In this document: positions 18,158 through 40,425 of the stretch, piece by piece
Layout of the letters: each line of letters begins with the position of its first letter
How positions within the stretch are numbered: the stretch's first letter is position 1
DNA from: Candidatus Latescibacterota bacterium
GTDB taxonomy: Bacteria; Latescibacterota; UBA2968; UBA8231
NCBI GenBank assembly: GCA_965203175.1
Contig: OZ241867.1
Coordinates: 5,440,001-5,504,000, forward strand
Direction: 5' to 3'
Length of the DNA stretch: 64,000 nucleotides
Notes under the pieces: model-generated
Databases searched by the model: none
What the model saw: only the letters and a program-made list of their open reading frames with translations
Told to the model about the DNA's origin: nothing
Program-made: the position numbers and the translations under genes

Positions 18158-19801
18158 CTATTGACGCGGCTCAACAACGGTCAGGACCTGGTCGGCAGCA
18201 ATGTCTCTCAGCACCTGAACTATCCCGCTGGGCCAGCGTACTTCGAGCCGATCCACGCGCTCGGCCGGTCCCAAGCCAAAGTGCAGCCGCAGATCGTTGT
18301 GCGACAAATAGCTTCCCCCGCTTTGCACCTCGGCGTGCTGGATCTGTCCGCCGGCATGGATAATAACCCGCGCACCAATCCCGTCGCGATTGCTTACCGT
18401 GCCCTCCGTGCGCACCAGCAGGTAGTGATTGCCGTGGTCGCCGTCGTTGCGCAACAGGGTTGGCGGGCCGTTGAGATTGAGAATAAATAAGTCGATGTCC
18501 CCGTCTCCATCGTAGTCAGCGAAACTCGTCCCGCGGCTGACACGACGCAACGCAAAGCCCGCGCCCGCTGCGGTCGCCACCTCCACCAGCCGTCCGCCCC
18601 TATTCTCAAACAGCGAGTTACCTTGTTGGTAGCTAGAGTTGACTCTCGGCAAGTCGGCCTGCGGGTAGGTGTGGCCGTTGGCCACAAAAAGATCGCGATC
18701 GCCGTCGTTGTCGTAGTCGAAAAAGCCCGTGCCCCACGAGACCAATTCGGCCGGTGCAGCCCCGATCCCCACAGCAAAAGACACATCCGCAAAAAATCCT
18801 CTACCCTCGTTCTTGTAGAGCGCGTTGTACTCGTCGGCAAAATTGGTGACAAAGAGGTCGAATAGGCCGTCGTTGTCGTAATCGCCCCACGCGGCCCCCA
18901 TACACCCCTGCGTCACGCCTTCCCCGCTGTACGCCACCCCGGCCATGAGCGCTTCCTCGGCGAAGCGACCATCCCGGCGATTGCGAAAAAGCAGGTTGGG
19001 CGTGGAATCGTTGGCCACGAACAGGTCGGGCCACCCGTCGGCGTCGTAGTCGCCGAACAGGGCACTCATGCCGTAGAACTTTTCGCCTTCCAGCCCGGCC
19101 TGTTTCGTCCACTCGGAGAACGTCCCGTCGCCGTTGTTGCGGTAAAACACATCCGCCGCCGGCAGCAAGCCCACCGGCCCGCAGTACACCTTCACGTTCT
19201 TCCATAGGCAGGGTATTGGGGATTCGTAGTCGAGGGAGAAATCCACGTAGTTGGCCACGTACAAGTCCACGTCGCCATCGCGGTCGTAATCGCCAAAACT
19301 GGCACCCGTGCCCCACCCCATATCGCCTACGCCGGTTTCCACCGTCACATCGGCAAAACGGCCGGCACCCGCATTGCGATACAGGGTATTGCGGCCAAAG
19401 TTGGTAACGTAGAAATCCGAGTGGCCGTCGTTGTCGTAGTCGGCCACCGCACATCCCATTGACCAACTCGTATCGCCCACGTCAGCGGCGACCGTCACAT
19501 CGGCAAAGTGACCACCGTCGTTGCGATAGAGTTGGTTGGCCGGATGCTCGCCTGCGGCAAAGCTCGCAAAGGAAGAGCCGTTGGCCACGTACAAATCCAC
19601 GTCGCTATCGCGGTCGTAATCGAAAAAGGCCGCACCGCCCATCATCCCCTCGACTATGTAGCTTTGGTCAGTGCCTGAGACATTGCGCTGTGTCAAGCCG
19701 GCCGTCACTGCTTGATCGACAAACTGCGCGGCCAGCGACTCGGTCCACCCACTGGTGATCCCGATGAGGCACCCGACCGCGCACTTGTAGAGAGATTTCA
19801 C
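18158..19801 (-). CDS. CRTAC1-like FG-GAP repeat protein with ASPIC/UnbV domain, secreted
   Basis: About 7 DYDxDGxxDLxVxN repeats; SNRDGIGARV, GSYLS, LHFGLG, VRWPSG. Confidence 0.9.
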   Translation of the reverse strand: MKSLYKCAVGCLIGITSGWTESLAAQFVDQAVTAGLTQRNVSGTDQSYIVEGMMGGAAFFDYDRDSDVDLYVANGSSFASFAAGEHPANQLYRNDGGHFADVTVAADVGDTSWSMGCAVADYDNDGHSDFYVTNFGRNTLYRNAGAGRFADVTVETGVGDMGWGTGASFGDYDRDGDVDLYVANYVDFSLDYESPIPCLWKNVKVYCGPVGLLPAADVFYRNNGDGTFSEWTKQAGLEGEKFYGMSALFGDYDADGWPDLFVANDSTPNLLFRNRRDGRFAEEALMAGVAYSGEGVTQGCMGAAWGDYDNDGLFDLFVTNFADEYNALYKNEGRGFFADVSFAVGIGAAPAELVSWGTGFFDYDNDGDRDLFVANGHTYPQADLPRVNSSYQQGNSLFENRGGRLVEVATAAGAGFALRRVSRGTSFADYDGDGDIDLFILNLNGPPTLLRNDGDHGNHYLLVRTEGTVSNRDGIGARVIIHAGGQIQHAEVQSGGSYLSHNDLRLHFGLGPAERVDRLEVRWPSGIVQVLRDIAADQVLTVVEPRQ

Positions 19802-21462
19802 TCCTCCGCTAACCGCTGCATTTCCGCCACGTTTTCCTCGAATAAGGTGACGGAGTATTTCTGCCGTAAACTGCGGACATAGTGCACATAGCCCCTCTTG
19901 GCTTTGTCGATTTTCACGTAAGCCCGGGCCCGACGCTGGGTATCGGCATCGTAGGGCTCTTTTTCCCGCCCTCGATCTATTACCCTAAACACAGAATACC
20001 CCTTCCCTGTGGGCACTGGGCCACCTACTTCGCCTACCTCCAAATGCTGCGCTGCTTCATAAATGCTCGGATAAAAGGCTTGAGTATAAACGTTGAGACG
20101 CAGATTGCCGCTGTGATGCAGGGCTCCTTCCCGCATAGTATGCTGCACGGCTAGCTGGGTCGCATCCGCTCCCTCCTGGAGTTCTCGCTTAAGGCGATAA
20201 GCAAGGGAATCGCTAGGCACCAAGATCTCGGTCACCACGATCGTTTCGGGCGAGGTAAATTTCTCGGGATGGGCGTCGAAGAACGCCTGAGCTTCCTCAT
20301 CGCTAGCGGTCGTGTGCTGATCCACCTCGCGCTGCCGCAGAAGACTGATGAGCAATTCCTCCCGTTTCCTGCTGAGAAAGTCCAGTAGTTCCGGATCCTG
20401 ATCTAGGCCAAGAACCTTGGCTTCTTGGAGGAAGAGGCGTTCCGGTATGAATATGTTCTGCAGCAGAGCCACGACACGACTGCTGTCTGCCAGCTCCCGT
20501 GGAGCGATGCGAATCTTCTGGGCATCCTGAAGAAAGTCGGCGAGCGCAATCTGTCCCCCTTTGAAGGTGCAGAGAGCTTTTTTGCCCGTAGAATCGGACA
20601 AGCTAGCCCCATCTACAGCGCTCAGCAGCGGAATCCTGTGATACATGATCCTAGGCGCATATTCCTCTCTCAACGAATCGAGCAGAGCCTGGGTCCTAGT
20701 CGCCATTTTCCAAGATATCAACTCTTCCCTTATTCTCTGTTCAGACGACTCCAGCGGCACCGGGACGGCGTCCAGGACTTTAAAAACGACATACCCCTTT
20801 TGGCCTTCGTAGGAAAAAGGCACTGGTTCTGAGGTTTCCCCTATTTCTAGATGGAAAACTTTTTCCGCAATGGTTGGCCTTGTTTGGTCTCTCAGCTTGT
20901 ATTTGCCACTATCCCCGCCGTGCTCTCCGGTGTCTTGATGTAATGAGCGCTCGCGGGCGAGTTGCTGGAAATCGGCTCCTGCTTCGAGCGCTGCGACGAC
21001 CTGCTGAGCTTCCTCCCTAGTCTCGATCATGATTCCACCTAGGCGGAGGGCACGATCCCGGTGCGTGGCGCGATAATGCCTGTGTAGTTCTTCATCGGTA
21101 ACTAGCACCTTGTCAACGATCTGTCTTTTTCTATATAGTTTGAGCAGGCGGGATTTTACCTGTTCGTCCATCCGCTTCTGGAATACGGGATCGCTATCGA
21201 TATTCTGGGCATGTGCTTCCCTGAGCAGGAGTTTCAGGTCTATCAGGGCTTCCAGCAGGTTCCTATCGATTTCTAAGGGAGTCTCACCCACCTGCATACC
21301 GGCAGAAACGCGGGACTTGAACGCCTTAAATTCCGAGGAAGAGATCGTCTCGTTCCCTACTATGGCGAGGATAGACTCGGCCTCCGGCAACGGGCGAGAA
21401 TCGTCGGCGAAGGCGATGGTTACGCTAGCTGCCATGAGAAAGGTCAACAGGTATTTTTGCAT
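19798..21462 (-). CDS. Periplasmic peptidyl-prolyl isomerase with two PpiC/rotamase domains (SurA/PrsA-like)
   Basis: Signal peptide MQKYLLTFLMAASVTIAFA; GADFQQLARERS..GGD, LEIGETSEPV; second domain GEVGGPV..GYSVF; start reassigned from 21537. Confidence 0.78.
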   Translation of the reverse strand: MQKYLLTFLMAASVTIAFADDSRPLPEAESILAIVGNETISSSEFKAFKSRVSAGMQVGETPLEIDRNLLEALIDLKLLLREAHAQNIDSDPVFQKRMDEQVKSRLLKLYRKRQIVDKVLVTDEELHRHYRATHRDRALRLGGIMIETREEAQQVVAALEAGADFQQLARERSLHQDTGEHGGDSGKYKLRDQTRPTIAEKVFHLEIGETSEPVPFSYEGQKGYVVFKVLDAVPVPLESSEQRIREELISWKMATRTQALLDSLREEYAPRIMYHRIPLLSAVDGASLSDSTGKKALCTFKGGQIALADFLQDAQKIRIAPRELADSSRVVALLQNIFIPERLFLQEAKVLGLDQDPELLDFLSRKREELLISLLRQREVDQHTTASDEEAQAFFDAHPEKFTSPETIVVTEILVPSDSLAYRLKRELQEGADATQLAVQHTMREGALHHSGNLRLNVYTQAFYPSIYEAAQHLEVGEVGGPVPTGKGYSVFRVIDRGREKEPYDADTQRRARAYVKIDKAKRGYVHYVRSLRQKYSVTLFEENVAEMQRLAEE

Positions 21463-21621
21463 AAGCACTGCTTGGATTCTTTCAGTTTTGCAAAAAATAG
21501 TTTGGTTAAGATTTTCAAATCTATTGATTTTTTTCATGCGATCAAATGCCTATAAAATCTTTGGTGATCCGATGGATAATTGGCTAGGTCAGGAATATAA
21601 AACTCAGTTTTGGAGTCATTC

Positions 21622-22632
21622 ATGATGTTAAAAAACACCAAATTCAACGACAGCGAAATGGCACGCATGGCGTCAATATTGATCAAGTACTACCATTTTC
21701 ACAAAAAACAAAAAGACATAGCTCAAGAGATGGGCATTAGTCCCGGCCTAGTGAACACGATCCTGTCACAAGCAAAAAAGAATGGCTTTGTGCAAAACTT
21801 GATTTCCATGCCCAAAGAGAATGTGTTGGCCGCCCATGTCCAAGAATTGTTCTCTCCAGACATTCCAACCCCTAACGCCATCGTGGTACCCTTTTCGAAA
21901 AATATATCCGAGCGAGAACGCCTGCGGGGAATCGGCGTAGCAGCAGCCCGCTACTTCGAAGCCATTGCTCGCGATGGGATCCATATCACCCTCGATGGGG
22001 GAGAGACGATCTTCTGCATGATAGAGGAACTGCGCCGGGCATTTTTGCAGATCGAGGTGTACAGTGTCGCTGGCGGCCCCCAATACGACCCCTATACTTC
22101 CGTGAACCTGCTAGTCAACTGCCTGCTGGTCCAGTTCGGGGCAACGCGGATGAATCCCCATATTCTGCCAGGCCCCAGAGACAAGGATCTACCTATTTAC
22201 AGGAAGAAGGCCCAGAATACCTTGAAAGCAGCCTCGAAAGCTGACGTTTTCTTTCTCGGTGTTGGCGCTTTGGGCCGCTCCCTTTCTAGGACCAATAGGA
22301 AAAACATGGACGATCTAGGCATAGATTACAAGAAACTACAGGATCGGGGTATCGTCGGCATCAGTGCTTACTCGGCTTTCGATGCCGAAGGAGAGCATAT
22401 TGTCTGCGAACTAGACGAAAAGATCCTCAAGGTCGCACCTGAACAAATTAAAAAAGCGGCCAGAAGCCGGAACAGGCATGTCGTCATCTTAGCCTACGGC
22501 CTCCCTAAGGTCAAGGCTCTGCGCGCCATGTTAAAAGGAGGCTGGGGCAACTGTCTGATCACCGACAGCAGCACGGCCGAAAAGCTTCTCGATAAGAACG
22601 AACATATTTCCAAGCACTTCACTCCTATCTAA
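21622..22632 (+). CDS. SorC/DeoR/LsrR-family sugar-binding transcriptional regulator
   Basis: N-terminal HTH YY...QKDIAQEMGIS...AKKNGFV; GGET, GVG, LITD sugar-binding domain. Confidence 0.85.
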   Translation: MMLKNTKFNDSEMARMASILIKYYHFHKKQKDIAQEMGISPGLVNTILSQAKKNGFVQNLISMPKENVLAAHVQELFSPDIPTPNAIVVPFSKNISERERLRGIGVAAARYFEAIARDGIHITLDGGETIFCMIEELRRAFLQIEVYSVAGGPQYDPYTSVNLLVNCLLVQFGATRMNPHILPGPRDKDLPIYRKKAQNTLKAASKADVFFLGVGALGRSLSRTNRKNMDDLGIDYKKLQDRGIVGISAYSAFDAEGEHIVCELDEKILKVAPEQIKKAARSRNRHVVILAYGLPKVKALRAMLKGGWGNCLITDSSTAEKLLDKNEHISKHFTPI

Positions 22633-22855
22633 AACCATAGGACCGGCTGGCGGGTTTGGTCCCCACTGTTAAAAACAAACGCTATTGGCAAATGCTTTAG
22701 GGGAGATCATTATATTCGATATAAATTTATTCAATTTATTTGAAGTTTTTACTTAATTCTCTTTATATTGTCTAAACATCGATGCTAGGTGGGTTTAATG
22801 CGTCTTCTGAGCCTCTTTTTGGCAGTACATAGGCCCTAGACCCAGGTGGTTTGAG

Positions 22856-25120
22856 GTGTTTGAAAAATCACACTTATCCAGACTAGTCCTAGCAGGACTA
22901 GCCGCGCTCGTCTCGATAGCTAGTCGATGCACGGCGGAAGTTGTCGTCGTGGGTGGCAGTCGAGGATTGGGCTGGGAAAGCGGCGGCGGCAGCATTCCGG
23001 CCACCGTCATCCGAACCGCCCGCACTGTCGAGCGCACCAACGCGCCGGGCGGCGTCATCGACTTTGCCCCCCAAGACAGGCCCAACTGGATCTTTCCGCA
23101 ACGCGCCGATATCACAGCCAATATCGCCGTGGGGGCCAACAGCGAAGAGCGAGGCGGCAGCATCCTCTCCCTCAACTCCTCCCGCGGAGCCGAGTTCGCC
23201 AAAATGATCGATGACGACGGAACTACGGCTTTGGATATGCGCCAAGCTTCTCCCTTACTGGGCGTTATCATCGATCTCGACCTAGGATCTCGCTTCGGAA
23301 TCAACCGCTTCAAATTCTTCCCGCGCAACGCCGACCCCGACTATCCGGCTCCCGATTTTCCCTTTCAGAACAATTTTATCCGGGGTTTCGAACTCTTCGT
23401 CAACGACGGCACTCCGCAGGCTCAGCTAGAAGGGGTGCCGATCTTTGAGACCGTGATCCTCCAGACTCAGAACGACAACGCGGTGGTGGACATCAGCATA
23501 GAGCCACAGTACGTCCGCTTTATCCGTCTGAAGTCTCTGACTACGGTCGGTTTTGAAATCGCCGAATTTCAGGTCTTCGGCACCGGATTCGTACCCGAAG
23601 CTCGCTACGTTTCGAATGTATTCGATTTTGGCGACCTCGCGCTGGTGGGCAAGCTGCGCTGGCTGGAGGAGAAGGAGGGAGACACAGAGCGGTCTAAAGT
23701 GGAGATCCGTACGCGTTCGGGGTTGGACCCGCAGCCTATCGAGTTCAACAAAATTCGTCCCGGCGAGCGCCTCTTCCGAGTAGGCGGCGGCACGGGCACC
23801 GATACCGGGATCATTAGCAGCGTGTACCGGGGAGGCATCAACACCTCCGAGGTAGAGGTACCGTGGAAACAGGCTAAAGATGTAGAGGACGAAGAACTCA
23901 AAACGCTGATCGAGACCGTCTTAGACAACGACGCAATCGACGCGCGGGAAGCCTTTCGAGTCTTCAAGGAGCTACCCTTGGAAAAGCAGGCCTTGATCGT
24001 TATAGATCAGGGAGATTACACCAGACTGAGCAATGACGACAAAGGCGGCATTCGCGATGACCTGACCAACTGGAGCGATTGGTCCCCCCCCCAAGCGCGT
24101 GCCGGGGTCGTTGCCAGCGAAGAGGAACTAGAGGACACCGGTCTGGGCGTCCAGGTCTTCTCACTCGTGCCCCGGCGCTATTTCCAGTTCTCCATCGACT
24201 TTTTCAGTGACGATTTCAGTGCCTCTACGGGCGTTGGCGGTCTGGCTTTCGAAGTGTTATCACCCCCCTTTGCTGCGGAACTGATCGCCGAGATCGCGCC
24301 GCGCACGGCCATTTTAGGGCAGAGGACTGACTTTATATACGCCGTGCGGAATCGCTCTAGGCCTGGACAGGACCGGGGTTTTGATCGCTTCGAAATCGAT
24401 ACGCCGGTGCGGGTTGAATCAATTGGACGGATCGAAATAGAGCAAGTAGATGGTACCGTGCAGGAAGCCGACTTCTCAACCGTTTCTTTAGATGCACTGC
24501 CCCTATCCCAGAACGGTTTCAGCGTTCTAGAGGTGCGCGAGGACGGTTTCGTCATTGCCTTTAACCCCATCGTCGAGGACGGCGTGCTGCTTAAAGTGGC
24601 GTTCGCGGGAACCGTCCTGCGCTTTGGTACAACTTTTACCGGCCGGGCCCGACACAGCCAAGCGAATTCGACCATCGGCCAAGGGGTCATTGCGGGCAAC
24701 GCGGCAGATTTGAGTCCGCTGGGTTTTGCCGATATCGATCAGCAACCAGTGGGCACTCCAGTGGCCCGCAACCTCTCCGTAGCCGGCCCCCTCGTCGGAG
24801 ATTTGCTCATAAATGTGAGAGCCAAGCCGGCTGTCTTTACCCCCAACGAGGATGACCTCAACGACCGGACATTTATCCAATACGATATTACTAGCCTACG
24901 GCGACTCTCGCCGGTAGCAGTGCGCATCTTCGACCTAGCCGGCCGTCTGGTCAGAAATCTTTACCAAGATCAGGACCTCAGCGGCCGCTTTACCCGCTCT
25001 TGGGACGGGAGAGACGAGCAAGGCAATCTCGTGCCGCCGGGGCACTACGTGTTTAGCGTTTCTCTGACCGCTGGGACGGGGAAAGTAGAAGAAGCAGGCT
25101 TGGTTGGTGTGGTCTATTAG
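22856..25120 (+). CDS. Secreted protein with discoidin/F5-8C-like domain and C-terminal FlgD-Ig sorting-type domain (paralog 1)
   Basis: Signal peptide; DLDLG..R.IRL..EIAEFQVFG; FTPNEDDLND..IFDLAGRLVR..WDGRDEQG..PPGHY. Confidence 0.72.
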   Translation: MFEKSHLSRLVLAGLAALVSIASRCTAEVVVVGGSRGLGWESGGGSIPATVIRTARTVERTNAPGGVIDFAPQDRPNWIFPQRADITANIAVGANSEERGGSILSLNSSRGAEFAKMIDDDGTTALDMRQASPLLGVIIDLDLGSRFGINRFKFFPRNADPDYPAPDFPFQNNFIRGFELFVNDGTPQAQLEGVPIFETVILQTQNDNAVVDISIEPQYVRFIRLKSLTTVGFEIAEFQVFGTGFVPEARYVSNVFDFGDLALVGKLRWLEEKEGDTERSKVEIRTRSGLDPQPIEFNKIRPGERLFRVGGGTGTDTGIISSVYRGGINTSEVEVPWKQAKDVEDEELKTLIETVLDNDAIDAREAFRVFKELPLEKQALIVIDQGDYTRLSNDDKGGIRDDLTNWSDWSPPQARAGVVASEEELEDTGLGVQVFSLVPRRYFQFSIDFFSDDFSASTGVGGLAFEVLSPPFAAELIAEIAPRTAILGQRTDFIYAVRNRSRPGQDRGFDRFEIDTPVRVESIGRIEIEQVDGTVQEADFSTVSLDALPLSQNGFSVLEVREDGFVIAFNPIVEDGVLLKVAFAGTVLRFGTTFTGRARHSQANSTIGQGVIAGNAADLSPLGFADIDQQPVGTPVARNLSVAGPLVGDLLINVRAKPAVFTPNEDDLNDRTFIQYDITSLRRLSPVAVRIFDLAGRLVRNLYQDQDLSGRFTRSWDGRDEQGNLVPPGHYVFSVSLTAGTGKVEEAGLVGVVY

Positions 25121-25170
25121 GTTTGGTCTAGACGCGACAGAAACTTCAATCCAGGAGAGAAAGACTTAAA

Positions 25171-30938: not shown

Positions 30939-30987
30939 GAAGGGAGGGTCTCTTGGCCTACCGCATTGAGAAAAGGGACTGGAAAAT

Positions 30988-33519
30988 ATGAGACATACTC
31001 TGTGGCTCTGCCGACTCAGTGCATTGGCTCTGCTGCTGACCGGTACGATAGGATGGGCTCAGCAGCGGGGACATCGGATCGGCAGCGCTGAGGTCCTCGT
31101 CAATACCCGGAATCACTGGCAGAACTGGGAGTTCCCCGCGGGAACCGTGGAGATTTCCGCCACAGGCACAGTACGGCCCCGTCAATTGCGACGAGGGACC
31201 AACGCGGTGGAGGATATAGTTGAATTTCTACGGCGGCATCCTCCGGGTAATTTAACCAAGAAAGACCCCGAACAAATCAGTCTGACTGATGCCATCCAAG
31301 CCGGCTCCAATCCAGAGGATGTGATCCACGTCCTAGATGGCGACCCGAGCACTTACTGGGAGCCCGATCCTCCTCGGAACCCAGACAATCTCGCTTCGGA
31401 GTGGTGGTTCACCGTCGATTTGGGGCGGCTCGTCTTTGCTAAGAAGATAGTAGTGCGATTCGCCCAAGAGGGAGATCCGTTTCTCTTGTTTGAACTGCTC
31501 GTAACCGACGGGCAGAAACGGGCTCAGTTTCCGCGCCCAACCTTCAAGACCGTTCTTCGCACTCTGCAACCCAACAGGAGCGAAAGGCTCTTCGAGATTG
31601 ATCTAACAGACAGCGAAGTAAAGGGTCAGGCCGTGCGCTTATTTCAGGTGCTCGTCAGCGGCAGCAACCTAGGCCGCAGCCAAGAACTTACTCAGGAAGA
31701 ATACAATGCTCTGTCGGCCCCCGATCGAGGTGCGATCGAATACTACAAGCGTCTGCCCGACGGAGGCAGCTTCAGAGTCGAGAAGGAGGTTTATGAACAA
31801 CTGTCGGTGGAGCAGCAGGGGGACGTTCGCCATTTCCGGCGCGAGCGACCCCGGCTAGCAGAAGTGGAAGTATGGAGCGAAGGAGATGAGATAGTCGGCG
31901 GCGCTATCGAACGAGGCGGTCGGCTATCGACCAGCCAGCCGGCTGCTGCAACCGGCAACTTCGTCGATGGCGATCCAAACAGCAAGTCGCGCCTGCCCTG
32001 GGGTGTTCCAGACCCGACCAGAATCGGTGAGGAGATGCAGTTGGTCGTCGATCTGGGTTCGCATTTCTGGATCGATACACATCGAATGGTTTTCCAAGGG
32101 CAGTCTTTCGCCGAATATACAGCGGAGAGCTCAGACGGTTCCCTAGCGCCGGACGGCAGCCTGAAGTGGAATAAACTGCTGCAGCGCAAGCACGAGATCA
32201 CCTATAAGAATTTTGAAGTCAATACCTTCTCGCAGGTAGCGGCGCGCTTTTTCAGACTGAGATGGTTTCTAGCGAGTCTGGAAGGAAGTGCCCAGCTAGC
32301 CGAGTTACAGCTCTACGGAGAAGGTTTCCAACCCAAGGTTTTCTTAGAGTCGGATCTGATCCGTCTGGGAGGCAGCCGCAATCTGCTCTCCATCGAGTGG
32401 CAGGCGGATACTCCTCCAGGTACGGAGGTGCTGATTCAGACGCGCAGTGGCAGTCAACTAGATGAAAAGCTGCACTATTTTCACAAAGACGGCACTGAGC
32501 TAACTAAGGAAAAATACGAAGACCTGTTGTCGCTTTTCAGAGGTGATATCATTGCCGAAGATGTACCGGGAAGTGACTGGAGCGACTGGAGCGAGCCGTA
32601 CAGCGAGGCGACGGGCAGCCCGATTACTTCGCCTTCGCCGCGAGAATTCCTCAAAATACGGGCGACTCTGCTCTCAGAAAATCCCGAACTCCACGCCGCG
32701 CTCCAATCGATCCGTCTGCGCTTCGTCGATCCCGTAGTCCGCAGACTAGTCGGCGAGATCGCGCCATTTCAAGTGGACTCGCTAGGAACGGAACAAGTCT
32801 TTTCGCTCTACTTGGAGCCACAGTTCTCCATCAGAGATTCCGGCTTCGACGAATTGCTCCTCGTAGCTCCATCCGATATGAACCTACAATTCGTAGGTTT
32901 GTACAGGAACGATGGGGAGTTGGCCGTGGAAGGAGTCTCCGTTGTACCCACCCAAGCCGACAGCCTGCGTCTGTCCTTTCCAAGGATAGCGCCGAATCAG
33001 GGCATTGACCTGCTGCGGCTCGACTTCAGGACCGCGCTCTTTGCTGCGGGCGCTGTGCTGCGTCCGGCCGTGCGCAACAGTGACCAAGGCGAGGACACTT
33101 GGCAGCGGGCAGATCCGGGCGATGTCCTAGCGGCAGTCCAAGGGAACACGACCACGATAGTGAGCACGCTCAAGATCAAAAAGCTGATCACTGGGATCGA
33201 GGTGCGCCCCCTCGTCTTCACCCCCAACGGCGACGGGATTAACGACGAGGTGATTTTCTCATTCCGGGTCACTCGTTTGAGCGCTTCTAGCCCGGTGGAA
33301 GTAACCGTTTACGATCTCAGCGGCCGGCCAGTGCGGCACCTAGCCGAACAACGTCCCTTGAGCACGGGAAGTTATGAGATCGGCTGGGACGGTAGAGATA
33401 GTAAGAACATGGTGGTACCCCCGGGAATCTACTTTGCTCGTCTGCAGATCGCTGCTAATACATTCGGCGCGATCGTCGGGGACGAGACCGTCGTGCGCTC
33501 CATAGGCGTAAGCTACTGA
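30988..33519 (+). CDS. Secreted protein with two discoidin-like domains and C-terminal FlgD-Ig sorting-type domain (paralog 2)
   Basis: LDGDPSTYW..FTVDLG, VDGD..VVDLG..ARFFRL..LAELQLYG; FTPNGDGIND..WDGRD..PPGIY. Confidence 0.72.
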   Translation: MRHTLWLCRLSALALLLTGTIGWAQQRGHRIGSAEVLVNTRNHWQNWEFPAGTVEISATGTVRPRQLRRGTNAVEDIVEFLRRHPPGNLTKKDPEQISLTDAIQAGSNPEDVIHVLDGDPSTYWEPDPPRNPDNLASEWWFTVDLGRLVFAKKIVVRFAQEGDPFLLFELLVTDGQKRAQFPRPTFKTVLRTLQPNRSERLFEIDLTDSEVKGQAVRLFQVLVSGSNLGRSQELTQEEYNALSAPDRGAIEYYKRLPDGGSFRVEKEVYEQLSVEQQGDVRHFRRERPRLAEVEVWSEGDEIVGGAIERGGRLSTSQPAAATGNFVDGDPNSKSRLPWGVPDPTRIGEEMQLVVDLGSHFWIDTHRMVFQGQSFAEYTAESSDGSLAPDGSLKWNKLLQRKHEITYKNFEVNTFSQVAARFFRLRWFLASLEGSAQLAELQLYGEGFQPKVFLESDLIRLGGSRNLLSIEWQADTPPGTEVLIQTRSGSQLDEKLHYFHKDGTELTKEKYEDLLSLFRGDIIAEDVPGSDWSDWSEPYSEATGSPITSPSPREFLKIRATLLSENPELHAALQSIRLRFVDPVVRRLVGEIAPFQVDSLGTEQVFSLYLEPQFSIRDSGFDELLLVAPSDMNLQFVGLYRNDGELAVEGVSVVPTQADSLRLSFPRIAPNQGIDLLRLDFRTALFAAGAVLRPAVRNSDQGEDTWQRADPGDVLAAVQGNTTTIVSTLKIKKLITGIEVRPLVFTPNGDGINDEVIFSFRVTRLSASSPVEVTVYDLSGRPVRHLAEQRPLSTGSYEIGWDGRDSKNMVVPPGIYFARLQIAANTFGAIVGDETVVRSIGVSY

Positions 33520-33575
33520 ATCTACCTTGGGGCCAAAACCGCGCTCTGACCAGCGCAAGACTTTGCTACAAACTA

Positions 33576-35576
33576 TTGCGGCGACTAATCCGGTTGCCGA
33601 GAGAAGGAGTAAGAAGTGCGGCCGTGACGAGAGAGCGTTTTTTCCCCAGTCTGTTGGTTGCCCTGCTGGTCTTGCTCAGTTCAGGCTATGGAGAGCGCCT
33701 TACAGCCCTCACTATATACCGAATCGGCGGCGAACACCTGCCTGCTCCCGAGGAGGAGATGCCGCACGAGTTCGTGCAGCTATCTTGGGAAGCGATAGAA
33801 GAAAATCTGCACGGCAAAGCGGAACTGGTGCAGGTGAGTCCCGATTCGGTTTCTCCACTGCGCCTTGATCCCAATCTCAATCTCACGCCGCTGATCGAGG
33901 AGCGCGGCGGCCAGATAGAGAACTTGAGTTTCCGAGGCTGGGAAAAGCACGGCGATGAGGATGCCTTGATATTCGACCGGGATCCGAGCACCATCTACCT
34001 AGGGGACGGCCGCTTCGCCTCGTATTCGGCCACCGAAAAAAATTTGCTCTTCGATTTTGGCGGTAGGGTGACCCTCCACAGGGTTCGCTTCTATCCGCGT
34101 GACCAGTTCCTAAGCGACCGATTTGTGCAGAAGTTCAAGATCGGCATCAGCGACGGGGATTCACTCAAAGATGGCACGCGAGAATTTAACGTACTCTTCC
34201 GCGTATGCCCCAGTTGTCCCACGCAGAGTGCCGGCGACTTCGACCTGATCCACGATATCCGCGAAAACACCGAAGCCGTCGTCGATCTGCAACTACCACA
34301 GATGCCCTCCCGCAAATTGGTCTTTCAGGCTTTCGAAAATACCCGCAATGTCTGGGAGATCGCCGAGTTCGAGATCTACGGAATCGGCTATGCACCCTTC
34401 GCAAGCTATGTATCCAATATCATCGACTTGGGCGCTCCGGCCACTCTGGGAAGGATATCATGGTCCGGCCGCGTTGACCCAGAGGCCAGAATCGACCTAA
34501 AGTCGCGCAGCGGCGACGATAGCGAACCGAACACGTACTGGCGCTTCACCGAGCGCGGCAGCGAGCGCACCCGCCTAGGTGCCAACGGCGCAGAACTGAC
34601 CAGACAAGCCTACCAGAAACTATCGTTTAACGAAAAGGCAGGGACTACCCATGACGGTGAAAACTGGAGCTTCTGGTCAGCCCCATACGACTTCAAGGCC
34701 ATGAGTAGCTCTCTAGTGAGCTCCAAACCACAGCAGTTTATCCAGTTCCAGATCGACTTCTCCTCTGCGGTGCAAGCTGGTGCCCGGCTGGATTACCTTC
34801 AGTTTGGGGTATCGGTACCGCCGGTGGCCAGTCAAGTTCTCGCTGAGATCACTCCGGTGGCAGTGCCTGCGGGTGAAGAATCCAATTTTACCTACAAACT
34901 ACGTCCTCAAATTGCACCCAATGATCTGGGTTTTGACAGTATCGAGATCGACGTGCCCGGAGTCCTTAAAGGTGTGGACGCGGTGCGCATCAGCGGCACC
35001 CCAGTGGAATTCGAGATAAGGCACCTAACAGACAACGGACTTGCCGTGCAGATCCCGAGGATCGATTTCGAGCGCACAGGTGAATTGATCGAATTAGATT
35101 TTCGGGCGGAGGTGTTCAAATTCAGTACTATCTTTGCGGGACGGGTCTTCGACAGTACGCGACCACACGAGATGCATCAGGCAGTAGCACCTGGCGATGC
35201 GGACCCGCTAACTGACACCAATACCCTGAAGGTGGACCTGAGCCAGTTGCGACAGGAGACGATCTGGACGCTGCGGCTTTCCCCAGCGGCTTTTACCCCC
35301 AATGGAGACGGGATTAACGATGCGGTGCGGATCGTTTACGACCTGCTAAATCTGACGAGCCCAGCGTCGGTAACGGTGGAACTATACGACCTGTCAGGTA
35401 GGAAGCTGGCAACGATACATAGGAGCGAGAACCCGAGCGGCCGCTTTTCGTTTAGCTGGGATGGTCGCAACAGTCAAGGCGAGATCCTGCCCCTAGGCAT
35501 TTACTTTCTTCGCATGGAGGTGGATGCGGACAAAGGCCGTGACTCAGCGCAGCGCGTCATTTCCATCGCCTATTAA
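33576..35576 (+). CDS. Secreted protein with discoidin-like domain and C-terminal FlgD-Ig sorting-type domain (paralog 3)
   Basis: FDRDPST, WEIAEFEIYG, FTPNGDGIND..YDLSGR..WDGRN..GIY; true start probably GTG 33624. Confidence 0.72.
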   Translation: MRRLIRLPREGVRSAAVTRERFFPSLLVALLVLLSSGYGERLTALTIYRIGGEHLPAPEEEMPHEFVQLSWEAIEENLHGKAELVQVSPDSVSPLRLDPNLNLTPLIEERGGQIENLSFRGWEKHGDEDALIFDRDPSTIYLGDGRFASYSATEKNLLFDFGGRVTLHRVRFYPRDQFLSDRFVQKFKIGISDGDSLKDGTREFNVLFRVCPSCPTQSAGDFDLIHDIRENTEAVVDLQLPQMPSRKLVFQAFENTRNVWEIAEFEIYGIGYAPFASYVSNIIDLGAPATLGRISWSGRVDPEARIDLKSRSGDDSEPNTYWRFTERGSERTRLGANGAELTRQAYQKLSFNEKAGTTHDGENWSFWSAPYDFKAMSSSLVSSKPQQFIQFQIDFSSAVQAGARLDYLQFGVSVPPVASQVLAEITPVAVPAGEESNFTYKLRPQIAPNDLGFDSIEIDVPGVLKGVDAVRISGTPVEFEIRHLTDNGLAVQIPRIDFERTGELIELDFRAEVFKFSTIFAGRVFDSTRPHEMHQAVAPGDADPLTDTNTLKVDLSQLRQETIWTLRLSPAAFTPNGDGINDAVRIVYDLLNLTSPASVTVELYDLSGRKLATIHRSENPSGRFSFSWDGRNSQGEILPLGIYFLRMEVDADKGRDSAQRVISIAY

Positions 35577-35653
35577 AAGATCGCCTCAATACGTCGGTGT
35601 TAGAGATGAGCTTATGTGATGCGGCCTTCATCTCTAGGCTTACGCGCAAATAT

Positions 35654-35690
35654 AAAAAAGCTGTGCCCGGATGCCCGAGCACAGCTTTTT
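35654..35690. terminator. Bidirectional rho-independent terminator
   Basis: AAAAAAGCTGTGC-loop-GCACAGCTTTTT between convergent genes. Confidence 0.85.
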
Positions 35691-35719
35691 AGGGATCGTA
35701 AAAGATACAGCGAGAAGGT

Positions 35720-36637
35720 TTATTCCATAAAATAGGACTTGATGCTGCCCCAAGTATCGCTCTCGACCGCGGTTGGCAAACGTTCCTCATCAACCGGGAG
35801 CAGCACGAAGTCGGTAAACGAACTAGCATTTCCGAATACATCGTTCTGGCCACCGAGTATAAAACGACCGAAGCGTTTGTCGTCCTGAGACGGACTTATA
35901 TCGTTGTCGATCACTGCGATCCCGAGGCCGATAATTTCGAGCTCGACGAGGTCGTGTTGGACGCTCTGTTCGGGCCCCTGGAAGTTGAAGTCGTCCCATG
36001 CTACCGTGTACCACTCGGCTTTCAGAGTGGCCTGAGTACCGTGGGAGCCGTCTAGGGTGAACGAATCGGCGCAGCAGGAATAAGGCTCTTCATCGTGCCA
36101 AGTCGACGAGCTCATCCAGAACCAGTTCCAACCTTCCGGCTCGATAGCCGGCCAGCGATAGTGGTAGGTCTGTGCATGGGCACCGTCCAACCGCATGAGC
36201 TCTTCCTCGGGCAGCCCGCGGTCTAGGGTGAAGTACCAGTCGCCAGAGTGGTCGGCATCCACTCCTATCTCAATGCTGTCATCGTTGCCCGAATCACCGT
36301 AACCTCCACCATCGCGGTCCCATAAATCGTCAAAGCGGTCAATGACGTAGTAGAGACGGTCGGTTTCGTCGTGCCAAGAGATGGCAACGCGGAACCACAT
36401 GTCGGACACATCGATCTCCTTGGTGGTGCCCAAGTCGCCGCCGAAATCCTGCTCGTTGATCTCGATCCACAGTTCCTCGGGCAACACCTCCCATTCGGAG
36501 ATATCGCCGTCGAGGACGGGAAGGTGGGACGTGGGCCACTGCCAAGCACCCAATATCTTATCTTCAGGGACATGGGCAGAAACCACATTGGCCAAGGCGA
36601 TCAACCCCACTGCTACAATCGAAAGGCTTTTCATCAT
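35720..36637 (-). CDS. Secreted CBM9/DOMON-like sugar-binding protein with C-terminal TWGxIK tail
   Basis: Signal peptide; PVLDGDISEW, DSIEIGVDAD, GIAVIDND; ends PTAVESDTWGSIKSYFME. Confidence 0.65.
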   Translation of the reverse strand: MMKSLSIVAVGLIALANVVSAHVPEDKILGAWQWPTSHLPVLDGDISEWEVLPEELWIEINEQDFGGDLGTTKEIDVSDMWFRVAISWHDETDRLYYVIDRFDDLWDRDGGGYGDSGNDDSIEIGVDADHSGDWYFTLDRGLPEEELMRLDGAHAQTYHYRWPAIEPEGWNWFWMSSSTWHDEEPYSCCADSFTLDGSHGTQATLKAEWYTVAWDDFNFQGPEQSVQHDLVELEIIGLGIAVIDNDISPSQDDKRFGRFILGGQNDVFGNASSFTDFVLLPVDEERLPTAVESDTWGSIKSYFME

Positions 36638-36855
36638 AATTCCCTCCTCAGTTTATGGGAATGCAAAATATAACTACCATACAATCAAGTCAAGATATAT
36701 TTAATTTTTTTAAAAAAATTTAGCGTCAATCAATCAAGGCTCAAATCCCTGCGCTATCGAGCAGTTGGCGATCCGAACGTCCCAGCCCATTTAACTAGTC
36801 TGAATAATTGACCCCAATAAAGGGTCGGATATATCGCAATTAACTTTGTAGGATC

Positions 36856-38745
36856 TCAAGTATAGAAAAAAGAGACGGCCAGAGAAGCCCCGCCAATACC
36901 GACGCTTGCTCCTAGCAGAAGGCCTATGAAGAATGGTCGCGCCTGCCGAAAGAGACTCGCCCCGCCGTAGCGCAGAATTGCGGCCTTGAGGAGCCAAGCC
37001 AGAAAGATGCTGAACCAGTCGAAGCGGATATTCTGAGTCATGCCCAAGACTAGTCCCGCAGGGTGCAGAGGCCAACCGGCGATATGATGGTTGGCAAAGG
37101 TGAGCAAGGCAGCTAGCGCAGCTCCCACACCCATAAAGAAGGCCGTCTGGAGTTGCGGAGGGTGGGGATTGTTCATGGTGTTGGCGACCCAACCCCAGTG
37201 GAAGTCGGGCGACATGACAAAGTACCAGATCCAGCCGTGGATGAGGCCGTGTCGGTAGCCCAGCCAGATATAACAGCCCAAGGCCGTCACCAGACTGACG
37301 ATGAGCGCTGCGGTCATAAAGAGGAAGAGCTGGCGGCTCGTGATCTTTTGCTTTGCCTCTTCGCAGACCTTAAAAGCATGGGCTAGGGTGGCCATGAAGA
37401 AGAGTTGGAGGTCGGAGGCCCAGACAAAATTTACTCCCATGGCCGTCAGGTCGCGGTCGGAGAGATGTCCAGTACCCAAGATATTGGTCAGGATGGGCGG
37501 CAGTGAATAGGGGGCCCGCATGCGACCGAGTCCAGTCTGGGCGACCAGCCGCGCCATGCCGAAGAAGACGAGCAGAGCTACCAAGAGGAAGCCTAGGCTC
37601 CATAGGAGGGAAAGCCCAGTGGCATAGAGGAAGCCGGCCATGTACAGCAGGCCGGCCAAGCCGACGAGGGCGACATAGCGCGGCGAGAGCAGATAGGGTT
37701 CCTGGATACCGCCCCCCACGATCAGGCGCCACTGCTGGCGCAGGTAATCTCGACTGACCCACAGGGAAGAGAGGACTAAGAAAAACAGGGCACCAATCTG
37801 CTGGTGGGTCATAAGCACCGAGCCGGATGGCAGAGGGCCGGCTGGCAATGGACTTGCAATCCCGGCCCATACCAGCAGGCTGTCCTCCAAGTTCATCAGT
37901 ACATGGCAACCCCAAACGCCCAGCAACACGTTCAGGTTTACCAGATACCCGAGACCTATGATCAGCGGATTGACCTCAATGCGGTAACTGAGTCCCAAAC
38001 TGCGGGACACTAGTATGTTGGTAATGGGAATTTCAAAACCGTCTAAAACCTGAAAGTCGAAAAGACGGTCGAGCACATCTATGGTGGGTATGGACCAAGC
38101 GATCAGGAAACCGATCCACAGCAGTTTACTTCTGAAGATGCTCCCCGCCGGATCGTCCAAACTCCCCACCATGCTGGTCGGCAAAATGGTCATCGGATAA
38201 ACCAAGCGCTCCCGGCGGGACCACTGATGATGCATCAAGGTGATAAAGGATACGCTGACTAGATAGAAGGCCAACATAAATGTTCCCCACAGGAACAGAG
38301 GCTTGATCCATAGGCCCCACGGAATAGGCTGATCCGCGGGGATGCCCTGAAATAGGCCCGTGATGGCTTGGAGGTCTCGTGGCACAACCCATTCGGGTAT
38401 GTGGTCCCATATGAGATACTTCCAATTGTTCTCAGGTGTGGCGTAGTAGAACACCCCGGCGAGCAGAGGGATGACATAACCACCAAAACCCATAGTGGGA
38501 ATGACCGTGGAGACCATGAGCGCGGCATAAATAAGCGCCAGATGGGCTGCGGAGAGGCGTAGGAGAGGATGCAACAGGCGTAGTGCCAAGCCAACGACGG
38601 TAGTCCAGAAAACGATGAAGATGACGCCTATGGTGGTGAAGTGGTCGGCGAATCCCGAATACGTGTCCAGTAGTACATAGCTGCGGACACCGACGAAATT
38701 CAGGAAGGCGCACAGGCAAAGAGTGATTACCAGAATCAGCACCAT
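36856..38745 (-). CDS. Polytopic inner-membrane protein, DUF6785/DUF6784 (OPT-superfamily-like) putative transporter
   Basis: Many hydrophobic helices; QWSRRERLVYP, WPLHPAG, ILRYGG..ARPFFIGL motifs. Confidence 0.72.
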   Translation of the reverse strand: MVLILVITLCLCAFLNFVGVRSYVLLDTYSGFADHFTTIGVIFIVFWTTVVGLALRLLHPLLRLSAAHLALIYAALMVSTVIPTMGFGGYVIPLLAGVFYYATPENNWKYLIWDHIPEWVVPRDLQAITGLFQGIPADQPIPWGLWIKPLFLWGTFMLAFYLVSVSFITLMHHQWSRRERLVYPMTILPTSMVGSLDDPAGSIFRSKLLWIGFLIAWSIPTIDVLDRLFDFQVLDGFEIPITNILVSRSLGLSYRIEVNPLIIGLGYLVNLNVLLGVWGCHVLMNLEDSLLVWAGIASPLPAGPLPSGSVLMTHQQIGALFFLVLSSLWVSRDYLRQQWRLIVGGGIQEPYLLSPRYVALVGLAGLLYMAGFLYATGLSLLWSLGFLLVALLVFFGMARLVAQTGLGRMRAPYSLPPILTNILGTGHLSDRDLTAMGVNFVWASDLQLFFMATLAHAFKVCEEAKQKITSRQLFLFMTAALIVSLVTALGCYIWLGYRHGLIHGWIWYFVMSPDFHWGWVANTMNNPHPPQLQTAFFMGVGAALAALLTFANHHIAGWPLHPAGLVLGMTQNIRFDWFSIFLAWLLKAAILRYGGASLFRQARPFFIGLLLGASVGIGGASLAVSFFYT

Positions 38746-38768
38746 AGCTGTGATCGGGGCGTCTGCTC

Positions 38769-39524
38769 CTATTTCATGCGCTCATGCCATATGGCCAGAT
38801 CGCCTTCGACAAAATAAAGCCGCGTGATGGCTTGGCCGGTCGCTCCAGGCGCGAGGGGCCCAAAACTCGGAGCGCTATGTATGCAGGAGTATTCCATGTT
38901 CTGGAATAGGAAGAGAGCTGGTTTCGACGCGGTGGCTATAAAACGGCGACCGTCCACCGACTGGATAGCCATCCACCCCTCTAGGACCACATCTTCGGGC
39001 GTTGCCGCAAAATTGGCTACAAAAGGGATCTTTTTTCCAAGAGGAGCGCCCTCGACGCTGTAAAGCTGGATGGTGGGCCGGGGGCCAAACTGACGCGGCA
39101 ACGCCATCAGACGTTTCATCTGGCCCTGCTGGCCGACCCAATGACGCAGACAGTCGTGGTCCCAGACGGCTTCGGCATTATTTGGGTTAAAACAGTTGAA
39201 GGCCAAGGTGGTCTCCCAGTCCCTAGGACTTTCGTTGGTCAGGCTCAGATGCGCTTCAACCATCTCCTCTCCCGGGATAAGAGTGACGGTGTAGGAGAGT
39301 TCACCCGGACGCCTGCCGACACAATACAGCACACCTCCATCGCGTTCTTCCCAGTTGATCTCCACTTCGTCGCCAAACCAAGTTGCGGCGGCGGCATCGC
39401 CAATCGCTTCGGGAAAGCAGGCACCAAACGTAGCTCCTGGAAAAGCCGGGACATTGGATAGAGAAAAACTCATCGAGCTTGACCCTCCTGGCCCCGAGAG
39501 GGATTTGATCCTGATTGGTGCCAT
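38769..39524 (-). CDS. Hypothetical protein (beta-rich)
   Basis: 251-aa ORF tightly packed between co-oriented genes (1-bp and 23-bp gaps). Confidence 0.6.
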   Translation of the reverse strand: MAPIRIKSLSGPGGSSSMSFSLSNVPAFPGATFGACFPEAIGDAAAATWFGDEVEINWEERDGGVLYCVGRRPGELSYTVTLIPGEEMVEAHLSLTNESPRDWETTLAFNCFNPNNAEAVWDHDCLRHWVGQQGQMKRLMALPRQFGPRPTIQLYSVEGAPLGKKIPFVANFAATPEDVVLEGWMAIQSVDGRRFIATASKPALFLFQNMEYSCIHSAPSFGPLAPGATGQAITRLYFVEGDLAIWHERMK

Positions 39525-39525
39525 C

Positions 39526-40194
39526 TTAGCTAGCCTCCTTTGCGCAGCGAAAACCGTAGAACATGGACCGATTATTGGTGAAGCCGCTCATATTCCGCGC
39601 CGCCGGTCGCAGATTGACGACCGATTTAGTCAGGTAACACCCCCCTTTGATAAAAGCCGAACCCGGTCCCGGTGCGTCAGCGCACCATTCGGCCACATTG
39701 CCGACCATATCCATGACCCCGTACGGGCTCGCACCTTCAGGATAGGAGCCGACGGCAGCCGGGCCTTCCCGGCTGGAGCGTCCCCAGCAGCATACCTCTG
39801 GATCGAACTGGTTGCCCCAAGGAAAACTGAGGCCATTCATGCCGCGCGCCGCCTTTTCCCACTCGGCCTCCGTGGGCAGGCGCTTGCCCGCCCATTTTGC
39901 GTACGCCCACGCATCGTCCTGATTTACCCCAGTGACTGGATGGTTGCGCTTTTCGGTCGGGAGCGTCCCATCGGGCCAGAAATCCGGTGGAGGATGGCCC
40001 GTTGCATCCGCGAATTCGGCGTATTGAGCGTTGGTCACTGGGAACTTGTCGATGTAGAAAGCATCCACGTACACTGACCGCTGAGGGATCTCACCGATGA
40101 ACCAGCTAGTGTGGTAGCCGTACGCGGCTGCTAATCGGGTGGCTTCCCGTTCTGAGGTTCCCATCGGGAATACGCCGGCTGGAATCAATATCAT
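39526..40194 (-). CDS. FGE-sulfatase/SUMF1-domain protein
   Basis: IPAGVFPMG, PVTNAQY, RLPTEAEWEKAARG, DMVGNVAEW, GFRC. Confidence 0.88.
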   Translation of the reverse strand: MILIPAGVFPMGTSEREATRLAAAYGYHTSWFIGEIPQRSVYVDAFYIDKFPVTNAQYAEFADATGHPPPDFWPDGTLPTEKRNHPVTGVNQDDAWAYAKWAGKRLPTEAEWEKAARGMNGLSFPWGNQFDPEVCCWGRSSREGPAAVGSYPEGASPYGVMDMVGNVAEWCADAPGPGSAFIKGGCYLTKSVVNLRPAARNMSGFTNNRSMFYGFRCAKEAS

Positions 40195-40333
40195 TTCTTT
40201 ATTTTTCTGACAAATATACGGCGCAGAGGTGGCCTATAATGACAGCAATTGAATGTTCTTGCGCCATTATTTTCAGCGCGGGTATAGCCCCAAGCTCAGC
40301 TTTTGTTGATCGGTATCGTTGAGACCTTCATCC

Positions 40334-40417: not shown

Positions 40418-40425
40418 CTCCCAGA

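Follow-up and report, generated by a model that had tools for sequence, protein, structure and literature searches.

A gene for an outer-membrane barrel, porP or sprF, commonly lies directly downstream of a gene for type-B cargo of a type IX secretion system (T9SS), as stated in PMC12618676, and such cargo stays at the cell surface bound to its barrel, as stated in PMC9143113. We describe here a five-gene block located in a 64,000-nucleotide stretch of DNA (hereafter the window; positions 5,440,001 to 5,504,000 of contig OZ241867.1, assembly GCA_965203175.1) from the single-contig, 6.58-Mb genome of a Candidatus Latescibacterota bacterium. The block comprises three genes for lectin-like proteins with C-terminal sorting domains (CTD_A, CTD_B and CTD_C) and two genes for predicted giant beta-barrels (BigA and BigB), and gene sets of the same kind recur throughout the genome. 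The reading we favour, tentatively and with a little less than an even chance of being right, is that these genes specify a T9SS-built lectin display complex in which the giant barrels would be cognate shuttle or anchor partners of the lectins, analogous to PorP/SprF.

The block and its end are laid out as follows, with coordinates in the window:

22856-25120, plus strand: CTD_A, 754 aa, class-A lectin-like protein, predicted T9SS cargo
25171-27969, plus strand: BigA (P0001), 932 aa, predicted A-type giant outer-membrane beta-barrel
27966-30938, plus strand: BigB (P0002), 990 aa, predicted B-type giant outer-membrane barrel, paralog of BigA
30988-33519, plus strand: CTD_B, 843 aa, class-B lectin-like protein, predicted T9SS cargo
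33576-35576, plus strand: CTD_C, 666 aa from a TTG start, class-C lectin-like protein, predicted T9SS cargo
35655-35690, no strand: strong, G+C-rich terminator-like symmetric hairpin with a 16-bp stem, 8 GC pairs and flanking A and T runs

An earlier note, made from the letters of the window alone, had picked out five co-oriented, tightly spaced genes at 22856-35576 closed by one terminator, and the coordinates agree: the gaps between the open reading frames are 50, -4, 49 and 56 bp, and the hairpin sits between the convergent ends of the block and of the neighboring gene for p305, a secreted protein. RNA-library contigs over the block (libraries X16-X18) stop at 35582-35640, just before the hairpin. 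The signal peptides that the same note had assigned to all five products correspond to hydrophobic N-termini read by eye; that of CTD_C appears only behind a 22-residue leader counted from the TTG start, and the true start could therefore be located further downstream.

The locus resembles type-B cargo and PorP/SprF pairs (SprB-SprF, PG1035-PorP-PorE) in that the cargo ends in a CHU_C/type-B-like sorting domain, the barrel gene directly follows a cargo gene (a same-strand CTD gene lies immediately upstream in 37 of 49 barrel units of the genome), and there are many cognate pairs per genome. Unlike PorP/SprF, the barrels here have no PF11751 or TIGR03519 match, are ~900-1000 aa long, have two inserts among ~26-28 strands and are often found in A/B pairs or triples, with about three cargo proteins per unit. 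The module also has a dedicated parvulin peptidyl-prolyl isomerase (PPIase), a CBM9-like protein and a tetratricopeptide repeat (TPR) protein, belongs to Latescibacterota rather than Bacteroidota, and has a predicted cargo-barrel contact. With SusC/SusD loci it shares modularity, tens of copies per genome, the combination of an outer-membrane barrel with surface carbohydrate-binding proteins and a large genomic share (15.4%). Unlike those loci, it shows no Plug or TonB-dependent receptor signature, no SusD-like protein and no recurrent carbohydrate-active enzyme or regulator, and its surface proteins are predicted T9SS cargo, not lipoproteins; classical Plug-domain receptors are encoded elsewhere in the genome. 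SlpA of Deinococcus, MtrB and LptD are the best fold matches of BigA, but the barrels here carry no SLH, coiled-coil, cytochrome or LptD N-terminal domain, and their acidic, D/N-rich insert has no counterpart in these three proteins among the matches seen. Barrels this large accommodate a partner protein inside or on their lumen (LptE, MtrA). No description of the barrel family was found in the literature searched, and searches for type IX secretion in Latescibacterota or Latescibacteria and for DUF6785, a family discussed below, likewise returned no literature. The module goes unmentioned in the searched passages of one Latescibacteria genome paper (PMC4454575) and in another, where ‘outer membrane’, ‘secretion’, ‘lectin’ and ‘TonB’ occur 0 times (PMC12993501). 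New here are a whole-genome census of the module, the structure of lectin classes A, B and C and of the barrel pair, the dissociation of DUF6785 from the barrels and the RNA-library cover.

BigA and BigB are 39% identical over their full length, and a cut-off as loose as E <= 10 brought up no match to any family in Pfam or NCBIfam, consistent with their first description as two large paralogs of no recognized family. An AlphaFold2 (AF2) model of BigA, built from 65 diverse homologs, has a mean predicted local distance difference test score (pLDDT) of 80.6 and a predicted TM-score (pTM) of 0.78. It contains long antiparallel strands, ~26-28 by hand count from the DSSP string, which are broken by a variable, beta-rich insert at ~242-419 and a conserved, acidic, D/N-rich insert at ~505-628. 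Of the segments of BigA, conservation among the 65 homologs is highest in the acidic insert (90% or more in 31 of 124 columns; 27% D+E, 30% D+N), and the first insert and the N-terminal extension of the barrel are variable. Foldseek against the PDB returned outer-membrane barrels only, with SlpA (E 3e-8), MtrB and LptD, the largest such barrels known, as the best matches; TM-scores were only 0.15-0.32. VIA, a fold search independent of Foldseek, gave Z 12-13 to PgaA, CymA, TamA and PelB, and its longest alignments were to SlpA (Z 12.2, 420 residues, root-mean-square deviation (rmsd) 6.4 Å) and MtrB (Z 12.1, 425 residues), with LptD at Z 10.3; TonB-dependent receptor chains (Z 9.1-10.0, rmsd 9.9-11.9 Å) fell below generic porins and other large barrels. 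FimD, LptD, MtrB and SprA are all among the barrel fold matches. A profile of the 65 homologs found no relative among PDB sequences, the one chance match having E 0.028.

In Pfam at E <= 10, BigA and BigB show no Plug domain (PF07715) and no TonB-dependent receptor signature, while the same Plug model has 32 matches elsewhere in the genome, 31 of them above cut-off; none of these 31 receptor genes lies within 10 kb of a barrel gene. Pfam and NCBIfam detected no POTRA, usher or TpsB-type domain and no PF11751 or TIGR03519 match in either protein, and a Pfam scan of all 14 locus proteins detected no SusD family. PF11751 had no match over the whole genome, but control genomes were equally silent, so that absence from the genome is not implied. 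BigA and BigB are confidently predicted to be very large outer-membrane barrels of an unnamed family, and not members of the TonB-dependent receptors, SusC or SprA. The earlier idea of a barrel pair lacking a TonB-dependent receptor or SusD holds up in this respect, and structure prediction placed the two proteins specifically in no solved family, nor in a non-membrane fold.

The three proteins flanking the barrels are mutual paralogs (E 3e-21, 4e-42 and 1e-44). CTD_A, CTD_B and CTD_C match FlgD_ig in Pfam with 36.6, 28.6 and 40.5 bits, and CHU_C (PF13585), which Pfam describes as a T9SS signal domain, with 32.5, 27.0 and 32.9 bits at a cut-off of 27. F5_F8_type_C (PF00754) was found in CTD_B (35.8 bits against a cut-off of 28.2) and weakly in CTD_C. 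These matches bear out the discoidin-like character first noticed, for two of the proteins, together with the paralogy of all three, and the ‘FlgD-CTD’ recognized at that time turns out to be a type IX sorting domain, type-B-like, so that the flankers are taken to be T9SS cargo. The type-A model TIGR04183 scored 17.5 and 17.1 on flanker tails against a cut-off of 23. Homologs of CTD_A are named ‘T9SS type B sorting domain-containing protein’ in database sources, and PF13585 is given for nearly all of the 120 homologs listed, in a precomputed Pfam column. The genome also encodes the secretion machinery itself: SprA_N matches a 2133-aa frame with 82 bits, PorU is present with 632.5 bits against a cut-off of 420, and a first look gives 231 candidate CTD-bearing proteins.

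CTD_A consists of a signal peptide, a CBM32/discoidin domain (~85-248), a helical and Ig-like middle part and the sorting domain (~650-754), and its AF2 model has a pLDDT of 83.3. Residues 88-243 match CBM32-6 of CpGH89 with Z 15.0 (rmsd 1.9 Å, 122 residues), and tens more CBM32 entries match, as do many galactose-, GalNAc- and fucose-binding modules. A SusE-like protein is found among the fold matches of this carbohydrate-binding module (CBM) domain (Z 11.3-11.6); the fold search also brought up matrix proteins of the RbmA-like kind and Ig-like matches, and CTD_A's C-terminal part looks like that of PorU (Z 12.4). The CTD_A fold searches turned up no catalytic domain. These results support a carbohydrate-binding-like nature, with a CBM32 fold, for the flankers, in keeping with their earlier description as binding proteins.

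Family sizes were determined by BLAST of the window proteins against all open reading frames of the genome, which gave 62 barrels, 185 CTD proteins, 60 FG-GAP/ASPIC proteins, 56 DUF6785 proteins, 39 PPIases, 35 p305 proteins, 13 FGE proteins, one SorC regulator and one copy of a 251-aa protein. The 62 barrel genes fall into 39-41 loci, depending on the cluster definition, which confirms a recurring gene set. Clustering of the other locus genes added a TPR family (35 members across 26 barrel loci) and a lipoprotein family, p254, in 13 barrel loci. Scattered PhyH, GDSL+TPR, sulfatase and spermine-synthase-like genes also occur, and 20 annotated representatives of the 209 non-family genes included no recurrent family of glycoside hydrolase, lyase or peptidase and no recurrent sensor or regulator. 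Linkage was scored as a position within 10 kb of a barrel gene, with 61 barrels in the count and a background of 4.7% for other genes. It was found for p254 in 14 of 17 cases, PPIase in 31 of 39, p305 in 26 of 35, CTD in 105 of 173, TPR in 33 of 62, DUF6785 in 18 of 54 (p=2.8e-11), FG-GAP/ASPIC in 19 of 60 and FGE in 5 of 13. Linkage to the barrels is tight for PPIase, p305 and TPR, whereas DUF6785, FG-GAP/ASPIC, FGE and SorC either associate loosely or are confined to particular loci. Every part with tight linkage belongs to the envelope, and none is a cytoplasmic enzyme or a transporter. The barrels and their linked families take up 1.01 Mb (15.4% of the genome).

A phylogeny of the 62 barrels made with FastTree, with Shimodaira-Hasegawa-like support, separates the members of tandem pairs by position. 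One clade (support 99) holds the first barrels of 8 of the 10 tandem pairs, including BigA, along with a barrel that is parted from its partner by an inserted PPIase gene; the other (support 99) holds the second barrels of 9 of the 10 pairs, including BigB, along with the partner of that parted barrel. Because the clades are position-specific and their internal branching is mirrored, the A/B pair is old and has been duplicated as a unit. In 10 of 10 pair-type loci the gene immediately upstream of the two barrel genes encodes a class-A lectin; these loci contain class C in 10 of 10 cases and class B in 8 of 10. A TPR gene directly follows the barrel gene in 13 cases.

Beyond this genome, the barrel was found at E <= 1e-20 in 104 of 168 Latescibacterota genomes: in one family (f1) it is present in 75 of 75 genomes, in two others it is absent (f3, 0/22; f4, 0/31), and a further family (f10) has distant homologs in 11 of 13. 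An exhaustive search of representative proteins returned 749 clusters at E <= 1e-3. Retrieval with a single barrel protein yielded 80 loci, 65 of them at least 20 kb long, in a sample biased to A-type relatives (53-99% identity). Each of these loci has both a second barrel (65 of 65) and a CTD protein (65 of 65), followed in frequency by PPIase (58), p305 (48), FG-GAP/ASPIC (44), TPR (30), DUF6785 (25) and SorC (5); four of the five SorC-bearing loci hold the closest relatives of BigA (94-99% identity). The class-A lectin follows the barrel, being present in 70 of 75 f1 genomes and in 0 of 61 genomes of the barrel-less families f2, f3, f4 and f14. DUF6785 occurs in multiple copies in the barrel-less f3 (22/22) and f4 (31/31) and is absent from f10 (0/13); in f3 and f4 it would therefore be part of another, equally expanded system. 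First-look candidates for DUF6785 number 19-68 in each f3 or f4 genome. The neighborhood proposed in the earlier note thus recurs in part: the barrel pair, CTD proteins and PPIase do so, while DUF6785 is loosely linked and phyletically dissociable. SorC, with one copy in the genome, is specific to this locus, the FGE protein is loosely linked (5 of 13 within 10 kb), and the 251-aa protein is single-copy.

The window sequence was found in sponge, coral and marine metagenomes, and in three RNA libraries (X16, X17 and X18; two studies) long contigs tile the five-gene block, at 22813-28231 and 29636-35582 in X16 and similarly in X17 and X18. Contigs do not prove single transcripts, and contig depth cannot rank genes, so we take the cover to show no more than that sequences of the block and of p305 turn up in RNA libraries in situ. 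Bins in the DUF6785 gene (37064-38391) have an RNA depth of 0-3.3 and a DNA depth of 11.3, where missing contig cover is not evidence of silence. p305 is on its own RNA-library contig of ~0.9 kb, with k-mer depths of 674, 132 and 171 in the three libraries versus 5-21 in neighboring contigs, and a DNA run over the same region is flat at 11-12. The ends of this contig (36559-36633) adjoin promoter-like hexamers at 36661-36633, and p305 may be a very abundant monocistronic transcript. A further contig from X17 (depth 6.7) joins BigA at 26948 to BigB at 29880, at equivalent positions of the acidic insert; this is most likely an assembly chimera between the paralogs, and recombination between BigA and BigB could also have produced it.

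Display of lectins by the barrels is favored because the tightly linked parts are envelope proteins only, barrel follows cargo in gene order, the tails are type-B-like and a T9SS is present. Under this reading the block would encode a five-protein cell-surface assembly, one of ten near-identical sets among about forty loci of the same plan. The class A, B and C lectins would be exported by Sec to the periplasm and would cross the outer membrane via the genome's single SprA-type T9SS translocon. The A-type and B-type barrels would then take over the lectins and hold them on the surface, a role suggested by barrel genes that directly follow a cargo gene; it would be the shuttle-anchor role that PorP/SprF play for type-B cargo, filled by an unrelated and far larger barrel. 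The acidic barrel insert may form a constant core, probably stabilized by calcium, with the variable insert and the lectins setting the specificity of each locus. The two-parvulin PPIase would chaperone the barrels, the cargo or both in the periplasm, and p305 and the TPR protein may be further envelope parts. The product would be a glycan-binding surface complex for polymer capture or attachment in the sponge environment. In this account the analysis itself supplies the folds, the paralogy, the recurrence, the order of the genes, the T9SS of the genome and the RNA-library cover, and we infer the barrel-cargo contact, the calcium binding, the ligand and the biological role.

Several observations weigh against lectin display. 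Association of barrel and cargo is predicted from gene context, and a complex prediction for BigA 96-932 with CTD_A 645-754 gave an ipSAE of 0.00 in both runs, which, with no controls, counts neither way. The barrels have no similarity to PF11751 or TIGR03519. PorP/SprF barrels are about one third as large, and anchoring alone does not explain the larger size. The type-B model TIGR04131 scores 26.2, 19.7 and 25.3 on the three tails against a cut-off of 35, and for this reason we call them type-B-like and not certified type B. In 12 of 49 barrel units there is no CTD gene directly upstream, and cargo outnumbers barrels ~3:1 (173 versus 61) instead of matching them 1:1. The scale of the expansion, the sugar regulator and a nearby glycoside hydrolase of family GH32 fit nutrient acquisition at least as well. 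Finally, ExbB/MotA-type motor genes lie within 10 kb of barrel midpoints in 2 of 7 cases (p=0.04); the signal is weak and confined to a divergent subfamily, and it hints at energized transport for some members.

It is possible, though unlikely, that the locus is instead a capture-and-uptake system, in which the lectins would pass a glycan or another polymer on to the two barrels, these serving as a gated channel for import, the DUF6785 protein would serve at the inner membrane and SorC would sense a sugar phosphate; such a system would be a TonB-box-less, SusCD-independent analogue of a polysaccharide utilization locus. The barrels are very large, and their conserved acidic insert could be a plug or gate, but they carry no Plug domain, and 0 of 31 Plug-domain receptors lie within 10 kb. 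Sixty-two barrels and 15.4% of the genome are on the scale of nutrient acquisition, and CBM32 and CBM9-like binding modules are at hand; against this, the 20 annotated representatives include no recurrent glycoside hydrolase, polysaccharide lyase or peptidase, and the PhyH, GDSL and sulfatase genes among them are scattered. DUF6785 genes are more frequent near barrels than other genes (18/54 versus 4.7%), yet DUF6785 abounds in all genomes of the barrel-less f3 and f4 and is missing from f10, where distant barrels occur in 11 of 13, and the OPT-like nature that would make it a transporter is a weak lead. SorC is retained in loci of the closest relatives of BigA, and there is a GH32 gene past the FG-GAP/ASPIC gene at a distance of ~3 kb, but within this genome SorC is present at this locus only. 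Some divergent loci near ExbB-type motors, beside a lipoprotein with a TonB_C-like tail, are a further point for import. As first stated, the uptake logic lacks support, given that the annotated genes include no recurrent glycoside hydrolase or lyase, that DUF6785 is loosely linked and dissociable and that SorC is locus-specific. We consider it improbable that the system goes further and is a third kind of outer-membrane glycan capture-import machine in Latescibacterota, independent of SusCD and TonB-dependent receptors. In that scheme, T9SS-delivered CBM32 lectins would dock on a heteromeric pair of barrels with ~26-28 strands each, a calcium-binding insert would gate oligosaccharides, and about forty substrate-specific versions per genome would be the main polymer-feeding route of the phylum in sponges and sediments.

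The p254 lipoproteins touch on this question. The 17 members have a lipobox, three long ones are extended at the C-terminus, one of them with a scored TonB_C match; examples lie at 6510190-6511317 (minus strand), 5636664-5637905 (plus strand) and 6497074-6498261 (minus strand) of the genome contig. The long members are found beside divergent triple-barrel loci, two of which are within 10 kb of ExbB/MotA-type motor genes. Assignment of p254 as TonB was rejected, as this is a lipoprotein family with a lipobox in which the extension is limited to 3 of 17 members and the TonB_C match to one. The locus in the window has no p254 gene.

Variable adhesin arrays, with the forty loci as alternative lectin sets for sponge matrix, cells and microbes and with no part in nutrition, would have the same architecture as the display complex and differ in biological role alone; we regard this as quite improbable. 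DNA of the organism and RNA-library contigs are found in sponge, coral and marine samples, but the family also occurs, judging by record titles, in freshwater and groundwater metagenome-assembled genomes. The lectins lack a catalytic domain and have Ig-like and RbmA-like fold matches, and recurrent catabolic genes are missing from the loci; the long RNA-library contigs over the block in two studies, for this locus only, do not suggest expression of one locus at a time. Least probable, and very doubtful in our view, is a dedicated export pore, in which the barrels would translocate or assemble the neighboring lectins in usher or two-partner style, fed by PPIase and TPR proteins and with the CTD as docking tag: barrel size would suit the passage or enclosure of a folded protein, FimD, LptD, MtrB and SprA are among the fold matches, a chaperone gene accompanies most loci (31 of 39 within 10 kb) as in chaperone-usher systems, a TPR gene directly follows the barrel gene in 13 cases, and a single SprA otherwise serves all CTD-bearing proteins (231 first-look candidates), but Pfam and NCBIfam revealed no POTRA, usher or TpsB-type domain in the barrels, and SprA and PorU, with tails that match T9SS sorting families, leave no need for a second route of export.

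About 15% of a 6.6-Mb genome is thus given to an envelope module whose central protein has no Pfam family, and tens of module genes are found in each of more than 100 Latescibacterota genomes. If the barrels anchor cargo, the cargo-shuttle principle of the T9SS would no longer be confined to Bacteroidota, and it would gain a new barrel class of far greater size as well as a fixed complement of two barrels and three lectins; if they import, this would be a new outer-membrane nutrient-uptake system. On either reading, the module probably shapes the binding and use of polymers by abundant uncultured bacteria of sponges and sediments. Structural studies and glycan arrays would have well-defined targets here in the barrel and its lectins, the CBM9-like protein and the chaperone.

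The neighbors of the block in the window are listed here:

13503-15131, minus strand: GH32 (fructan/sucrose hydrolase family), ~3 kb beyond the FG-GAP/ASPIC gene
16590-18038, plus strand: TPR protein of the recurrent family, Pfam TPR families
18158-19801, minus strand: FG-GAP/ASPIC protein (CRTAC1-like), FG-GAP_3 2.2e-51 and UnbV_ASPIC 1.1e-24, loosely associated accessory
19798-21537, minus strand: PPIase with two parvulin domains, Rotamase_2 4.8e-26 and Rotamase 1.4e-17, overlapping the FG-GAP/ASPIC gene
21610-22632, plus strand: SorC-family regulator, Sugar-bind 2.3e-27, locus-specific
35720-36637, minus strand: p305, secreted CBM9-like protein of 305 aa with a cleavable signal peptide and no lipobox
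36856-38745, minus strand: DUF6785+DUF6784 polytopic membrane protein, Pfam 4.2e-87 and 3.2e-23
38769-40194, minus strand: 251-aa protein (single copy, no family) and FGE-sulfatase-domain protein (222 aa, gene at 39526-40194)
40303-42154, plus strand: AbiEi-like antitoxin (DUF6088/AbiEi_4) and AbiEii nucleotidyltransferase toxin, a type IV toxin-antitoxin pair right after the locus

Pfam confirmed the earlier labels for SorC, PPIase with FG-GAP/ASPIC, and FGE, while ‘CBM9-like’ and ‘OPT-like’ proved weaker than claimed. p305 has no Pfam match, CBM9 included; its label comes from language-model look-alikes only (score 0.97, with CBM9_1 on 13-97% of cluster members). The DUF6785 protein has OPT-like language-model look-alikes at 0.78-0.80, a weak lead, and it matched no PDB sequence at E <= 10. 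Membership in OPT (PF03169) was rejected: DUF6785/DUF6784 is the only match at E <= 10, and the OPT model matches no DUF6785 gene in the genome. We read the DUF6785 protein as a possible inner-membrane transporter that is loosely associated with the module and not an obligate partner; one other member in the genome is a 2132-aa fusion (2862405-2868803). The two-parvulin PPIase, for which no SurA_N family was reported at E <= 0.01, reads from its domains as a putative SurA/PrsA-like periplasmic chaperone dedicated to the module. The 251-aa and FGE proteins are probably not part of it. The GH32 gene encodes the sole glycoside hydrolase among the annotated window genes.

The guanine-plus-cytosine (GC) content of 19798-40194 is 0.51-0.57, compared with 0.60-0.63 in the flanks, and it also lies 1-1.5 standard deviations under the genome-wide means of the same gene families; the lowest values are those of SorC (0.499) and PPIase (0.526). 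Together with the adjoining toxin-antitoxin pair, this hints that, relative to its paralogs, the present copy came in or was exchanged at a later time. Further along the window, 55498-61048 (plus strand) encodes two large proteins with 4-5 lamin-tail domains and a FlgD_ig C-terminal domain, which are further probable T9SS cargo, and the convergent gene beside them at 61650-62834 (minus strand) encodes a protein with a Pfam CBM9_1 match.

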